A stretch of 64,000 nt of DNA from Escherichia coli (lineage in GTDB: Bacteria > Pseudomonadota > Gammaproteobacteria > Enterobacterales > Enterobacteriaceae). Location of the stretch: assembly GCF_013122565.1 (NCBI RefSeq), contig NZ_CP053258.1; one strand, 5' to 3'. The translations under genes and the position numbers were made by a program. Shown here piece by piece: positions 50 to 55,241 of this stretch (its first letter is position 1; every line of letters starts with the position of its first letter). The notes beneath the pieces are model-generated. The model was not told where the DNA came from. It did no database searches and was given only the letters and a program-made list of their open reading frames with translations.

Positions 50-2068
50 TTAGACGGCAATAGCGATTAGCAGCACAACCAGTGCGGTAACCACATACAG
101 GCAATAGAGACGAAAGTCGCCGCTTTGCAGATGCTGTATTTCTTTGGCCAGCCGTTGGGTGGCGCTCACGATGGGGCGGATCACCCGCTCATCCCAGAAG
201 GGTTCTGTGCTCTGAGCCCTGGCGGTGACGTGCGCAAGACCTTTATTTAGCCTCAGCGTAGGGTCGAGCTGTTGTCGTAGACGGAATAGCGCAGAAAAGA
301 CCACACGCAGCGGCTGCATCACGCCATTGCCTGACGGAGCCATCGCGTTTTCCCAGCTGTAGCCGCATGCCCAGGCATCTCCTGTGTGACGAAACGCTGC
401 GCGGCGCGAACGACACCACAGCCAGTAAAGGCCAGGCAGCAAAGGCATCGCCAGTAGTAACAGCAACAGTAATAAGGGGGTGACCTGTGTATGAAACGTG
501 CCGGGTACAAGCGCCATTCCGCTGGCGACAGTGACGGGAGGGGTATCGGTAAACGCATGGGCAATATGCATTATCTTCGGTGCCAGCCAACTGGCACTAA
601 GCGCAATTAATACGCAGAGTGCCGCGAGCAGTAGCATGGCGACGATCATCGTATTTGGCACTTCCTGTGCCTCTTCAGCGTGTGTACTGCGCGGCGCACC
701 ACAGAAAGTAATACCGTACATTTTGACGAAGCACATTACTGCCAGCCCACCAGTGACTGCCAGCATCACCATAGCAATAGGGCCCGCAAGTTGTAGCGCT
801 ACGGCTTCCACACGACTTAGTGAGAACAGCGACTGCCAGGTGTACCATTCGCTGATAAAACCATTCAGCGGAGGAATGGCTGATATCGCGAGGCAACCAA
901 TCAGGCATGCTGCGGCTGTCCACGGCATCCGTTTTGCCAGTGCCCCCATTTTTTCCATGTCGTGGGTATGCAAACGCGAAATAATCGCACCCGCGCCGAG
1001 AAATAGCAGCCCTTTGAACAGCGCATGGTTGAGCAGATGAAACAGCGCGCCGAGCAGTCCAACCACGGTGAGCAGCGGGTCGTGCAGTGACAGACCAATC
1101 ATCGCCACACCGACCGCCAGCAAAATAATGCCGACGTTTTCGACGGTACTCCAGGCCAGCAGCCGTTTGATATCCTGTTCCGCCAGCGCATATAGCACGC
1201 CCAGGAGCGCGGAGATTGTGCCGATCGCCATCACCAGAATGCCCCACCACAGAGGCAAACCCGTTTGCGCCAGCAGATCCATCGCTACTTTCAGGATGCC
1301 GAAAATACCGATTTTGACCATTACACCAGACATCAACGCCGAAGCGTGCGATGGTGCGGCAGGGTGAGCGCGCGGCAACCAGCTGTGCAACGGCATCATC
1401 CCGGCTTTCGCGCCAAAACCGAAAAAGGCCAGCAGGAATACCGCCGACGCCAGCCCCGGAGAAAGTGAAAGCGTGCGGAAACTGGCAAAATCGAGGCTGC
1501 CGCTTTCGCGCCCCATCAGCAAGAAGGCGATCATAATCAGCACCGATCCGGCGTGGGCGATAAAAAAGTAGAGCATGCCAGCGTTGATTGACGTTTTATC
1601 CTGCCTGGCAATGACCAGAAACCAGGAAGACAGCGACATCATTTCAAACAGCACGATGAACCAAAAAGCGTTGTCCATCACCAGCAGGGCAACCATCGAT
1701 GCGATGAAAATATTCATAAAGAAGCCCATCGCCGCCGCGCCTTTGCCCTCGTATTCGCGCATATAAGTCAATGAATAGAGCGAACAAACTACCACTAGCA
1801 AGGAGATAACCAGCACCATAAATGCCGAGAGGCTATCTATTCGCAGAGTTAAATCGGCAAAGTCAAAAGGGGTGGCAAAACGGGCGACTAAAGTTACGCC
1901 TCCATGTAATTGCGTAATTCCGCTGATGATGCCAATCACGCCGCCCACCAGCGATGTGATGCCGGAAAGCTTAATAGCCAGTCTGTCCAGACCGAGTAAA
2001 AACAGCGAAGCCAGACTGGCAAACAGATAGAGGATCAGCGACCAGGTTAATAATTGCAGGGCATCCAT
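50..2068 (-). CDS. hyfB: hydrogenase-4 subunit B (NuoL/ND5-like membrane subunit)
   Basis: 672-aa ORF, highly hydrophobic polytopic protein, N-term MDALQLLTWSLILYLF; follows hyfA with 1-nt overlap. Confidence 0.92.
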   Translation of the reverse strand: MDALQLLTWSLILYLFASLASLFLLGLDRLAIKLSGITSLVGGVIGIISGITQLHGGVTLVARFATPFDFADLTLRIDSLSAFMVLVISLLVVVCSLYSLTYMREYEGKGAAAMGFFMNIFIASMVALLVMDNAFWFIVLFEMMSLSSWFLVIARQDKTSINAGMLYFFIAHAGSVLIMIAFLLMGRESGSLDFASFRTLSLSPGLASAVFLLAFFGFGAKAGMMPLHSWLPRAHPAAPSHASALMSGVMVKIGIFGILKVAMDLLAQTGLPLWWGILVMAIGTISALLGVLYALAEQDIKRLLAWSTVENVGIILLAVGVAMIGLSLHDPLLTVVGLLGALFHLLNHALFKGLLFLGAGAIISRLHTHDMEKMGALAKRMPWTAAACLIGCLAISAIPPLNGFISEWYTWQSLFSLSRVEAVALQLAGPIAMVMLAVTGGLAVMCFVKMYGITFCGAPRSTHAEEAQEVPNTMIVAMLLLAALCVLIALSASWLAPKIMHIAHAFTDTPPVTVASGMALVPGTFHTQVTPLLLLLLLLAMPLLPGLYWLWCRSRRAAFRHTGDAWACGYSWENAMAPSGNGVMQPLRVVFSALFRLRQQLDPTLRLNKGLAHVTARAQSTEPFWDERVIRPIVSATQRLAKEIQHLQSGDFRLYCLYVVTALVVLLIAIAV

Positions 2069-2685
2069 TAGCGTTGCTCCTGAGTGAGGGAAAGGGGATC
2101 CTCCCCGCCATTGGCAAACCAGCTTGCGGCAAGGCGCTGTTTTTCTTTCATCTGACGTTGCAGGCTATCGTCGGTGATCAGCCGTAACGCCTGATTCGGG
2201 CAAGCGCGAACGCAGGCCGGACCTTCTGGCAAGAAATCACACAGGTCGCATTTCACCGCGACGGTCTGGACACCCGGTTCCCAGCGCAGCAAAGCATGTT
2301 GTGTTGGCGCGTTTTCTTCGCCGTCTTTGAGTGAGCCTTCAGCCTGAAAAACATATTGCGCAGGGGCATTCACCGGACGGCTTCCTGAAGCGCTGATTGC
2401 GCCAAATGGGCAGACCACGGCGCAAAGCTTGCAGCCAATACAGAGGCTTTCGTTGAGTTGGATCGCATCATCCCTCTGGGAGATGGCATTGACCGGGCAG
2501 ACCTGCAGGCAAGGGGCTTCCTCACAGTGATGACACACGACAGGGGCAGTGAGTGTTGACGTCTTCGCCAGGGCCAGGCGCGGGTGTTGCTGTAAACCTT
2601 GCGTTTTATGCACGTCCGAACAGGCAGCGAGACAGGTATTACATCCTGTACACCACAGTGGTTCGGCCACCACAAAGCGGTTCAT
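2068..2685 (-). CDS. hyfA: hydrogenase-4 component A, 4Fe-4S ferredoxin-type subunit
   Basis: 205 aa from internal ATG (MNRFVVAEPLWCTGCNTC); multiple CxxCxxCxxxCP ferredoxin motifs; ORF-track N-terminal extension rejected. Confidence 0.88.
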   Translation of the reverse strand: MNRFVVAEPLWCTGCNTCLAACSDVHKTQGLQQHPRLALAKTSTLTAPVVCHHCEEAPCLQVCPVNAISQRDDAIQLNESLCIGCKLCAVVCPFGAISASGSRPVNAPAQYVFQAEGSLKDGEENAPTQHALLRWEPGVQTVAVKCDLCDFLPEGPACVRACPNQALRLITDDSLQRQMKEKQRLAASWFANGGEDPLSLTQEQR

Positions 2686-2730
2686 GTCGGCTCCTTGAAA
2701 ATGATATGAAACATTGCATTGCATTTCATA

Positions 2731-2748
2731 TTGCATAAAGGATGCCAG
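2731..2748 (-). promoter_or_regulatory. candidate sigma-54 (-24/-12) promoter for hyf operon
   Basis: minus strand reads CTGGCATCCTTTATGCAA (GG-N10-GC spacing) about 45 nt upstream of hyfA ATG; hyf operon is known to be sigma-54 dependent. Confidence 0.5.
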
Positions 2749-2942
2749 TCTGATTAATTTAATATATTCAATAAGTTATGAATTAACTGGATTCTGAACG
2801 GTACAAAAATGATGGTCATTAACGTTCAGCAAAAAATGGATTCGACACCCGTGTCGCAGGGGAAAGCGAGAATGTGATCTTGATCACGATAAGTGAAGTG
2901 TGCTGACCGCAAGCGCAGCCAGCACGGAATGGAGCAAAGTAA

Positions 2943-3413
2943 TCAGGCGTGTTCTTTCAGCCAGTTCAGCACAACGTCGTGGTGATTACTGGTTTTGAAA
3001 TCGTCAAAGACATGTTCGATTTTGCCATCAGCGTCAATCAGGAAGCTGATGCGATGAATACCATCGTAGGTTTTGCCCATGAAGGACTTTTCCCCCCAGA
3101 CGCCGAATTGCTCGCACACCTGGTGGTCTTCATCAGACAGGAGCGTAAAGTTAAGCAGCTCTTTTTCCGCAAAACGGGAGAGTTTTTCGGGTTTATCGGT
3201 GCTGATACCCAGCACATCAACGCCCGCTTTTTTCAACTCATCCATGTTATCGCGTAAGCCGCAGGCCTGTACGGTACAGCCGGGGGTCATGGCTTTCGGG
3301 TAGAAATAAACCAGAACACGCTGTCCCTGGAAGTCGGTCAAATTAACTTGTTCTCCGTCTTGATCCGGCAAGCTAAATTTCGGTGCGATATCACCGGCTT
3401 TCAGTGGATTCAT
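2943..3413 (-). CDS. bcp: thiol peroxidase Bcp (peroxiredoxin, bacterioferritin comigratory protein)
   Basis: 156 aa, MNPLKAGDIAPKFSLPDQDGE..., peroxiredoxin PGCT motif; start overlaps gcvR stop (TAATG). Confidence 0.95.
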   Translation of the reverse strand: MNPLKAGDIAPKFSLPDQDGEQVNLTDFQGQRVLVYFYPKAMTPGCTVQACGLRDNMDELKKAGVDVLGISTDKPEKLSRFAEKELLNFTLLSDEDHQVCEQFGVWGEKSFMGKTYDGIHRISFLIDADGKIEHVFDDFKTSNHHDVVLNWLKEHA

Positions 3414-16430: not shown

Positions 16431-18131
16431 TTACATCAACTGACTTTCCTCACCCTCCGCAGAGCGAAAGCTAATACTCACTAACGTGCCGCCGCCGGAA
16501 GGTTGTGAAAAAGTCAGCGTCCCACCTAGCCGTTCCGCGCGTTCGCGCATGATATTCAGACCATAATGACCTTCGGGTTCTTTCGGTTCACCGATACCAA
16601 TCCCGTTATCACGGATATAAACCGTGTGATTGCCGTCCGGCGCGGTGACGCAGCTAACGGCGATTTCGCTGGCGTTGGCGTGCTTCATCGCATTCAGCAC
16701 CGCTTCGCGAATAATTTGCAACAAATGCACCTGCATTTGCGCATCCAGTGCCAGGGTTGGCAGACGGCAGTCGAGGGTCAGTTTGGCGCTGGTTTGATTT
16801 TGTAACGTATCCAGCATTTCCCTCAACGCGGAGGGGAGATCCGCCTGCTGCAGCGTCAGGCGGAAAGTAGTCAACAGCTCGCGTAACTGCCGATAAGCAT
16901 CATTCAACGCCTGGGAAAAATCGGCCATGATACTTTGTGCGGTGGCGTTATCTTCCGGTATCGAACGCTTCAGTAACGTCAACTGGATACGTAAGTAAGA
17001 AAGTACCTGAGCCAGCGAGTCGTGCAGTTCGCGGGCGATGGTCGCACGTTCTTCCATCAACAATAACTGCTGAAAATGCTTCTGCGCCTGATTAAAGTAC
17101 AAACCGCGTCCCAGCATCGATGAAACACTGTTAAGCAGCGGTTCTGATGAGGAAACGTGACTATTTTGCCAGTGCAGTTCACCGTAAACCGTCTCTTGCA
17201 TTGTCACCGGTAAAATCTGCATCGGCAATTCCGGGTTTGGTTGCCCTTCGCTAATCCGCCAGTTTTCACCGACATTTAACTCCAGATATTCAGCCGCTTC
17301 ATTGTCGCGAACAATCTGCAAAATATGGCGGAAACAATGCACATCAATCTGGCTGGTGTTCAGCGCCTGCGAACATTGATACAACACCTCCAGACGACGC
17401 TTGGCCTCGTGGAGATCGCGAGTTTTTTCTTCTACCGACGCCTCCAGCGAACGGTACAATTTATGTAGCTCGCTCGACATCTGGTTAAAGGTTTTTGCAA
17501 GCAGGCCAAGCTCATTCGGCAGGCTGGTATCCAGCGGTGGCGAGTCGAACTGCCCGTGTTCAATACGCTGACTGGCGGTAACCAGCTGATTCAGCGGGGC
17601 AACCACCTGATGGCGTATGCGGCGCAAAGTAAAAAAGACCAGCGTGAAAATACCGATGCCGCCAGCCAGGGAAATCGCCACCACCAGCAGCATTTTGCGT
17701 TCAGCGTAGTGCTGTAAAGCCAGCACGAACAGGTCTATCTGATTAACATAATTATTAATATTGGCCTGATACCACGGCAAATCACCCTTGCTGAGCCGAT
17801 TATTCATCTCCAGCCAGTTGGCATTCAGATGCGCATAGCGGGTTTTTACTGCTTCTGGCACATACCAGACGTTGAGATTGGTTAATACTGGTGAATGCAG
17901 TGCCTGCTGAAATAACTGGCGATGTGCATTGAGTTGTGGACTGCCACTTTGCAAGTCGTAGCCCAGGCGGTAACTCTGCATACGCAGCGATCCGGCAATA
18001 TTGATAGCCTCAGCGTCGCGCAAACTGCTCGCCAGAGTTAGCAGAGCGATACCCGTGGAAAGAATCGACAGCAGCACAATGTAAAAAAAGGCCCGGGCCA
18101 GACTGGCCGAGACGGGTCGTTTAACAATCAC
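16431..18131 (-). CDS. narQ: nitrate/nitrite sensor histidine kinase NarQ
   Basis: 566 aa from GTG start (MIVKRPVSASLARAFFYIVLL); HAMP plus HisKA_3 plus ATPase domains. Confidence 0.92.
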   Translation of the reverse strand: MIVKRPVSASLARAFFYIVLLSILSTGIALLTLASSLRDAEAINIAGSLRMQSYRLGYDLQSGSPQLNAHRQLFQQALHSPVLTNLNVWYVPEAVKTRYAHLNANWLEMNNRLSKGDLPWYQANINNYVNQIDLFVLALQHYAERKMLLVVAISLAGGIGIFTLVFFTLRRIRHQVVAPLNQLVTASQRIEHGQFDSPPLDTSLPNELGLLAKTFNQMSSELHKLYRSLEASVEEKTRDLHEAKRRLEVLYQCSQALNTSQIDVHCFRHILQIVRDNEAAEYLELNVGENWRISEGQPNPELPMQILPVTMQETVYGELHWQNSHVSSSEPLLNSVSSMLGRGLYFNQAQKHFQQLLLMEERATIARELHDSLAQVLSYLRIQLTLLKRSIPEDNATAQSIMADFSQALNDAYRQLRELLTTFRLTLQQADLPSALREMLDTLQNQTSAKLTLDCRLPTLALDAQMQVHLLQIIREAVLNAMKHANASEIAVSCVTAPDGNHTVYIRDNGIGIGEPKEPEGHYGLNIMRERAERLGGTLTFSQPSGGGTLVSISFRSAEGEESQLM

Positions 18132-48822: not shown

Positions 48823-50247
<1,425 letters not shown>

Positions 50248-53088: not shown

Positions 53089-53391
53089 TTCACTTCTGTT
53101 TCCTCCCTGCATTTGTGGGGAGGATTTCGTCTTGAACTACGTTCACCAGGCTATTTTATTTGTCATTTTGGCCCCGGGCAGTGCTCGAAATCCTCACGTA
53201 CTATGTGTACGCCCCGGTTTCTCCGCGCTGTTCGTGTCCAAACTGACTGCAACAATTACGCCTGTTGAACCAAGTTCTTATTCCCTTTTCAACTTCCAAA
53301 TCACCAAACGGTATATAAAACCGTTACTCCTTTCACGTCCGTTATAAATATGATGGCTATTAGAAAGTCATTAAATTTATAAGGGTGCGCA

Positions 53392-54408: not shown

Positions 54409-55241
54409 TGTTTGCAGTTTCTTCAAGACGCGTGCTGCCGGGCTTTACTTTAAGCCTTGGCACCAGTCTGCTGTTTGTGTGCCTGATATTGCTGCTGCCG
54501 CTCTCTGCGCTGGTGATGCAGCTTTCTGAGATGAGCTGGGCGCAGTACTGGGAGGTGATCACCAACCCGCAGGTGGTCGCGGCCTACAAAGTGACGCTGC
54601 TGTCGGCGTTTGTGGCATCGATTTTTAACGGCGTTTTCGGTCTGCTGATGGCGTGGATCTTAACCCGCTATCGCTTTCCGGGTCGCACGCTGCTTGATGC
54701 GCTGATGGATTTACCCTTTGCGCTGCCAACGGCAGTCGCCGGTTTAACGCTGGCCTCGCTCTTTTCCGTAAACGGTTTTTACGGTGAATGGCTGGCGAAG
54801 TTTGATATCAAAGTCACCTATACCTGGCTTGGTATTGCGGTGGCGATGGCCTTTACCAGCATTCCGTTTGTGGTGCGTACCGTGCAGCCGGTGCTGGAAG
54901 AGTTAGGCCCGGAATATGAAGAAGCGGCAGAAACGCTCGGTGCAACGCGCTGGCAGAGTTTCTGCAAAGTGGTGCTGCCGGAACTTTCTCCGGCGCTGGT
55001 GGCGGGCGTGGCGTTGTCGTTTACCCGTAGTCTTGGTGAGTTTGGCGCGGTGATTTTTATCGCCGGGAACATCGCCTGGAAGACGGAAGTGACGTCGCTG
55101 ATGATTTTTGTGCGCTTGCAGGAGTTTGATTACCCGGCGGCGAGTGCGATTGCTTCGGTGATCCTCGCGGCATCTCTGCTGCTGCTGTTCTCAATTAACA
55201 CTCTGCAAAGTCGCTTTGGTCGGCGTGTGGTAGGTCATTAA
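54408..55241 (+). CDS. cysU: sulfate/thiosulfate ABC transporter permease CysU (CysT)
   Basis: 277 aa, [24 protein letters not shown]. Confidence 0.95.
   Translation: MFAVSSRRVLPGFTLSLGTSLLFVCLILLLPLSALVMQLSEMSWAQYWEVITNPQVVAAYKVTLLSAFVASIFNGVFGLLMAWILTRYRFPGRTLLDALMDLPFALPTAVAGLTLASLFSVNGFYGEWLAKFDIKVTYTWLGIAVAMAFTSIPFVVRTVQPVLEELGPEYEEAAETLGATRWQSFCKVVLPELSPALVAGVALSFTRSLGEFGAVIFIAGNIAWKTEVTSLMIFVRLQEFDYPAASAIASVILAASLLLLFSINTLQSRFGRRVVGH

Follow-up and report, generated by a model that had tools for sequence, protein, structure and literature searches.

The hydrogenase-4 (formate hydrogenlyase-2) operon of Escherichia coli, hyf, is reportedly expressed in a sigma-54- and FhlA-dependent manner and is said to be induced by formate at low pH, with primer extension reportedly placing the transcription start 30 nt upstream of hyfA. 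The operon also encodes an activator of its own, HyfR, which is said to bind the hyf promoter region and which, when plasmid-borne, reportedly induces hyf about 1000-fold; expression in the wild type is reportedly due to FhlA, not to chromosomal HyfR. At the level of binding, the K-12 hyfA promoter, hyfAp, was recovered by ChIP-seq as site OS23 (ATGGCATCCTTTATGCA; FAT 16, PSSM 10.5, start predicted 31 nt ahead of hyfA; PMC4591121, Table 1), where it carries the flag 'C' for sites experimentally confirmed in EcoCyc (PMC4591121). When purified RpoN holoenzyme was used in genomic SELEX, the peak over the bcp/hyfA spacer reached 92% with the holoenzyme alone and 100%, the highest, in the presence of NtrC (PMC8743547). 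Related operons are regulated similarly in other organisms: hyf promoter activity in Proteus mirabilis falls in both rpoN and fhlA mutants (PMC7658346), and deletion of hyfR in Pectobacterium atrosepticum leaves very low FHL-2 activity (PMC7384014). In laboratory E. coli, hyf has been termed silent or poorly expressed (a 'silent operon' in the title of Self et al. 2004, cited in PMC7654741), and replacing the hyf promoter with the hyc or T5 promoter still gave no Hyd-4 hydrogen production (PMC7654741). A bound promoter at this locus therefore need not give meaningful output.

We compared with these systems a candidate -24/-12 element upstream of hyfA in a 64,000-nt stretch of E. coli DNA, hereafter the window. 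The gene content is as the initial annotation gave it, with only hyfA, hyfB and the beginning of hyfC present: hyfC starts at position 39 and contributes 13 codons (MRQTLCDGYLVIF), and hyfD-J, hyfR and focB lie beyond the window edge. Matching E. coli DNA carries bcp and hyfA in its RefSeq annotation. HyfA reached no NCBIfam model at its cut-off, and the identity of hyfA therefore rests on its 99% identity to the K-12 protein and on the RefSeq annotation. The spacer that separates bcp from hyfA measures 257 nt and contains the element, on the hyfA strand. Read as the reverse complement, positions 2748..2731 give CTGGCATCCTTTATGCAA, in which exactly 10 nt separate GG from GC, as had been claimed for the minus strand and as is characteristic of a sigma-54 (RpoN) -24/-12 promoter. 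The 3' end of this 18-mer is 45 nt from the hyfA ATG (2685-2683), which agrees with the earlier figure of about 45 nt, and the 17-mer used for scoring ends 46 nt before it. The element is thus intergenic, points toward the gene and stands close enough to it for a short leader. Its core, TGGCAT-CCTTT-ATGCA, departs from the consensus TGGCAC-N5-TTGCW at two positions, both conservatively (T for C and A for T). The features of the region are collected in Table 1.

Table 1. Genes and sequence features around the hyfA promoter. Coordinates are window positions; negative and positive numbers in the last column are relative to the predicted transcription start where they denote promoter positions.
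Feature	Position	Strand	Detail
hyfB	50..2068	minus	NCBIfam 'hydrogenase 4 subunit B', 974 bits (cut-off 667)
hyfA coding sequence, 205 aa, 4Fe-4S ferredoxin-type subunit of hydrogenase 4	2068..2685	minus	202/205 (99%) identical to K-12 HyfA
hyfA Shine-Dalgarno sequence AAGGAG	2691..2696	minus	Invariant in five-genome alignment
ATGCA-ATGCA-ATG, 5-bp tandem duplication relative to K-12	2712..2724	minus	Placeable at +6..+10 (alignment with MG1655)
Predicted transcription start	2720..2721 (+1 at about 2721)	minus	12 nt past the C of the -12 GC
Sigma-54 -24/-12 element CTGGCATCCTTTATGCA	2732..2748	minus	GG 2746-2745 = -25/-24; GC 2734-2733 = -13/-12
IHF-like site ATTCAATAAGTTA (1 mismatch to WATCAANNNNTTR)	2766..2778	plus	-57..-45
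Conserved block TGACCATCATTTTTG (also given as TGACCATCAYTTTTG), candidate FhlA/HyfR enhancer	2804..2818	minus	-97..-83
Conserved block CGACACGGGTGTCG (CGACAC-N3-TGYCG), candidate FhlA/HyfR enhancer	2843..2856	minus	-135..-122
CRP-like site CGTGATCAAGATCACA (1 mismatch to TGTGA-N6-TCACA)	2873..2888	minus	Centred at -159.5
11-bp G+C-rich hairpin GUGCUGGCUGC-GCUU-GCGGUCAGCAC	2900..2925	minus	Just past the bcp stop codon
bcp	2943..3413	minus	NCBIfam 'thioredoxin-dependent thiol peroxidase', 310 bits (cut-off 140)

The element agrees with OS23 at 16 of 17 bases and is orthologous to K-12 hyfAp, an already known feature. For that ortholog, binding of sigma-54 has been demonstrated in vivo and in vitro; for the element in the window, the sequence, position, orientation and conservation described here would point to the same role. 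Scoring with a sigma-54 position weight matrix bore this assignment out. The matrix was built from 134 high-stringency E. coli ChIP-seq sites with hyfA excluded (Bonocora et al. 2015, PMC4591121, Tables 1 and 2), and the element obtained 16.42 bits, the top score of all 128,000 window positions and one above the 75th percentile (15.8) of the 134 training sites themselves. Taken over the whole window, a score of this size is less striking: it was attained in 111 of 300 dinucleotide-preserving shuffles (37%), and the degenerate consensus TGGCAYN5WTGCW, whose single match in the window is the hyfA element, has an expectation of 0.62 in shuffled sequence and occurred at least once in 47 of 100 shuffles. 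Since so many shuffles match the consensus or reach the score, the motif by itself lacks significance at the scale of the window. Sites this good are expected only about 0.0009 times on the hyfA-directed strand of the 257-nt spacer. What is significant is therefore position together with orientation, the motif alone across 64 kb being weakly above chance.

A second, cross-species matrix (the Barrios matrix as printed in PMC7658346) gave the element 12.22 bits and rank third in the window; with that rank, and with shuffles easily exceeding it, we do not claim window-wide significance. In 298 of 300 dinucleotide-preserving shuffles the top Barrios score exceeds the window's own best, 12.96 bits, the mean maximum of the shuffles being 15.7, and strong sigma-54-like words may accordingly be depleted in the real sequence. 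Other high-scoring sigma-54-like 17-mers of the window lie at 49660-49676 (minus strand, 15.5 bits), 54950-54966 (plus strand, 15.0 bits) and 53248-53264 (minus strand, 13.7 bits), and the window's other high-scoring 17-mers have no exact-sequence match in the Bonocora 2015 supplements. The window also holds the counterpart of a published antisense sigma-54 site within narQ (IA19 of PMC4591121, ACGGTACAATTTATGCA), which reads ACGGTACAATTTATGTA here at 17451-17467 on the plus strand; its critical -12 GC is changed to GT, and its matrix score falls from 14.9 to 10.2 bits.

We then considered how widely the element is conserved. Within the species, the region is present in 4297 complete E. coli genomes; 3735 of them share an identical 60-nt sequence from TGG to the hyfA ATG, and the other 562 differ by about 1 nt. 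The hyfA promoter region itself (2686-2765) was found in 4297 of 5426 complete E. coli genomes and some part of a 901-nt bcp-hyfA query in 5424, so that the hyfA-proximal region is absent from about 21% of complete E. coli genomes. Over the larger segment 1-24000 of the window, the best identity among these 5426 genomes is only 98.8% over 24 kb, although the segment is colinear, which indicates an Escherichia or Shigella lineage with no near relative in this set.

Beyond the species, we used as an independent, unbiased test a sample of one genome per GTDB species in which genes were recognised solely by the coding pattern MNRFV(V/I/M)A(D/E) at the gene start. This yielded at least 120 loci, with no Escherichia record among the matches listed. 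The 200 nt upstream of each locus were scored, and a gene was called HyfA-like if it was full-length and scored 185 bits or more against the HyfA of the window. Among the matches listed, 40 of 54 HyfA-like genes are preceded on the sense strand by a sigma-54 site scoring 12 bits or more, at distances of 38-88 nt from the ATG (median 44), and the TGG and TGC are invariant in all 40 sites. The antisense strand of the same 200 nt reached 12 bits in none of the 54 HyfA-like genes among the matches listed, nor did the first 200 nt of their coding sequences (0/54). The element is thus conserved at orthologous loci, as a sigma-54 promoter should be. A published survey is in keeping with this: its S5 Table lists the hyfA upstream regions of Yokenella, Pectobacterium, Dickeya, Brenneria and Proteus with PSSM scores of 11.4-12.6, and genera that have no hyf with background scores.

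The same sample contained genes for HydN-like ferredoxins of about 180 aa. Eleven such loci among the matches listed (L006, L017, L019, L037, L072, L085, L091, L096, L098, L109 and L116), from Serratia, Brenneria, Hafnia, Sodalis, Acerihabitans, Paludibacterium and other genera, have sigma-54 sites of 13-17 bits at 70-94 nt before the ATG, in agreement with the known sigma-54 promoter of E. coli hydN.

The spacer upstream of the element was aligned across five genomes: the window, K-12, Klebsiella indica, Citrobacter sp. R56 and the metagenome-assembled genome CTSoil_132 (unclassified Proteobacteria). HyfA is 62-69% identical to the window's across the three non-Escherichia genomes, with 62% in CTSoil_132. 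The alignment, together with pattern searches, revealed conserved islands at fixed distances from the -24 element, and these include sites that we regard as candidates for binding by IHF, an enhancer-binding activator and CRP. Nearest to the promoter is the IHF-like site. In Citrobacter sp. R56, Klebsiella indica, Morganella and strain RIT691, an exact IHF consensus occupies the corresponding position, -29/-30 relative to the 17-mer; among the matches listed, 8 of 41 loci have the exact consensus within that 55-nt zone and none has it in the other 160 nt. Farther upstream are two blocks that are candidate FhlA/HyfR enhancer elements. At the proximal one, the window shares TGACCATCA with K. indica, Citrobacter sp. 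R56 and CTSoil_132, its offset from the 17-mer being -69 to -71, and the block resembles GATGACATCGTTTTT in the upstream region of K-12 hydN. At the distal one, which is also a terminator-like hairpin followed by a T-run, CGACA-N4-TGYCG stands at -107/-108 from the 17-mer in five genera, Atlantibacter included; Brenneria and Hafnia have it at -98 and -122. TGTCG/CGACA words recur upstream of K-12 hyc-hyp, fdhF and hydN, as do TGAC(A)TC words. At the offset of the CRP-like site, Citrobacter sp. R56 has TGTGACTAATATCACA, with no mismatch, and CTSoil_132 has TTTGAAGTCGATCACA, with one.

The two candidate enhancer blocks score at most 5 bits with the published 13-site FhlA matrix (PMC7658346), which is too weak a tool for assigning an FhlA site. 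Because the scores of this matrix in the spacer are weak, the enhancer assignment is founded on conservation and position. The best match of the FhlA matrix in the spacer, TGATCAAGATCACA (10.3 bits, rank 32 in the window), was set aside as an FhlA site and is better read as a CRP-type palindrome. We found no base-resolution definition of the HyfR/FhlA, IHF or CRP sites of hyf in the literature examined. An Rfam search of the bcp-hyfA spacer returned no family. The sequence from 2830 to 2945 folds with -35.2 kcal/mol (z-score -3.8), and the G+C-rich hairpin next to bcp is probably the bcp 3' end or a terminator.

Taken together, these observations make it very probable that the element is the sigma-54-dependent promoter of hyfABCDEFGHIJR-focB, the hydrogenase-4/formate hydrogenlyase-2 operon. 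The initial annotation had described formate/HyfR-dependent sigma-54 transcription; the sigma-54 promoter stands, as the ortholog of K-12 hyfAp, and the regulatory wording proved too narrow, FhlA reportedly being a documented activator as well. As FhlA is said to account for wild-type expression, 'formate/FhlA- and HyfR-dependent' is the more accurate description. In the mechanism that we propose, sigma-54 RNA polymerase would engage the GG (-24) and GC (-12) at 2746-2733 and form a stable closed complex that does not start transcription unaided. An AAA+ enhancer-binding activator, either FhlA with formate or the operon's own HyfR, would bind upstream, the candidates being the blocks at about -135..-122 and -97..-83, and bending of the DNA at the IHF-like site near -50 would bring it to the polymerase, where hydrolysis of ATP by the activator would open the promoter. 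Transcription in this strain is predicted from the spacing to start near 2721, about 12 nt past the C at -12, so that hyfA would be preceded by a leader of 36 nt with a strong Shine-Dalgarno sequence. Catabolite control might be added through the CRP-like site at -159.5.

The leader itself has a peculiarity of this strain. Compared with K-12, whose 5' UTR measures 31 nt, the 5-bp tandem duplication gives one of 36 nt and leaves -27..+5 untouched. It was found in none of the 4296 complete E. coli genomes holding the region (best match 75/80), and eight contigs that encode an identical HyfA have a spacer of 252 nt, not 257 nt. A perfect 8-nt inverted repeat, ATATGAAA...TTTCATAT, occupies 2731..2704 and spans -10 to +18; owing to the duplication, its arms are 12 nt apart here as against 7 nt in K-12. 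We considered the palindrome ATATGAAA-N12-TTTCATAT as an operator and dropped this reading because, in the five-genome alignment, its conservation does not extend outside Escherichia.

Could the element be a sigma-54 site that is never productively activated, either as the poised or decaying site of a silent operon or as a chance match, with hyfA effectively untranscribed from it? Many E. coli sigma-54 sites are bound without known output (PMC4591121), and hyf is called a 'silent operon' in the title of Self et al. 2004; however, the K-12 promoter is experimentally confirmed according to EcoCyc, and the Proteus hyf promoter depends on both rpoN and fhlA (PMC7658346). Although motifs of equal strength arise in 37% of shuffled windows and the region is absent from about 21% of complete E. 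coli genomes, the element and its upstream blocks keep fixed positions across genera. The private 5-bp insertion lies beside the start site in this strain, but it does not alter -27..+5. We therefore regard this explanation as very improbable. Still less credible is that hyfA is transcribed mainly from the one sigma-70-like match (ATGAAA-17-TATCAT, 2729..2701; 9/12), which overlaps the start region, or by read-through from bcp, 257 nt upstream on the same strand, with the -24/-12 match incidental: that match is weak and no better than chance, 0.5 such matches being expected when the region is shuffled, and the five-genome alignment shows no conservation of its hexamers. The conserved feature is the sigma-54 element. 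Against dependence on read-through stand two hairpins downstream of bcp, the first with 11 G+C-rich pairs (2925..2900) and the second terminator-like with a T-run (2856..2843).

With the element read as the sigma-54 promoter of hyf, its value is mainly one of correct annotation: it marks the start of the hydrogenase-4/formate hydrogenlyase-2 operon and would explain the dependence of that operon on sigma-54 and a formate-sensing activator. The new details, namely the private 5-bp leader duplication and the -27 substitution, are at the level of the strain. The comparative footprint of the upstream blocks could guide the mapping of the HyfR/FhlA, IHF and CRP sites. More speculatively, and with a good deal of doubt, one might propose that the duplication (+6..+10) and the A-to-C change at -27 alter the near-silent hyf output in this lineage, and that the fixed-offset blocks (the CRP-like site at -159.5, CGACAC-N3-TGYCG and TGACCATCAYTTTTG) constitute an unmapped set of HyfR/FhlA and CRP operators. 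If the fixed-offset blocks were indeed hyf operators, the HyfR site would be distinct from the classical FhlA site.

How, then, does this locus compare with the described systems? It shares with K-12 hyfAp the bcp-hyfA spacer, the orientation, the core TGGCATCCTTTATGCA, the whole of -26 to +5 and identical upstream blocks. It differs at -27 (2748), where the window has C and K-12 has A, a change toward the consensus that accompanies scores of 16.42 and 15.17 bits, respectively, and by three further substitutions farther upstream in the spacer. The hyf operons (FHL-2) of Proteus mirabilis and Pectobacterium atrosepticum likewise have a sigma-54 element upstream of hyfA, and among the matches listed in the GTDB species sample the Proteus and Pectobacterium sites have scores of 14-19 bits and precede the ATG by 40-65 nt. 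Their cores, however, are nearer to ...GGCA(T/C)G-N4-(A/T)TGCT, and the upstream blocks common to Escherichia, Citrobacter and Klebsiella indica were not found in these operons by exact pattern. The promoters of the FhlA regulon (hycAp, hypAp, fdhFp and hydNp) resemble that of hyf in several respects: a -24/-12 element precedes the first gene by 20-41 nt, enhancer and promoter are separated by A+T-rich DNA, and the upstream regions are rich in TGTCG/CGACA and TGAC(A)TC words. They share with it, according to the literature, control by formate and FhlA. The hyf promoter is set apart from them by a core (TGGCAT...ATGCA) in which T replaces the C of position -21 and A the T of position -15, by upstream blocks that score poorly with the 13-site FhlA matrix, by the CRP-like site at -159.5, and by a dedicated additional activator, HyfR.
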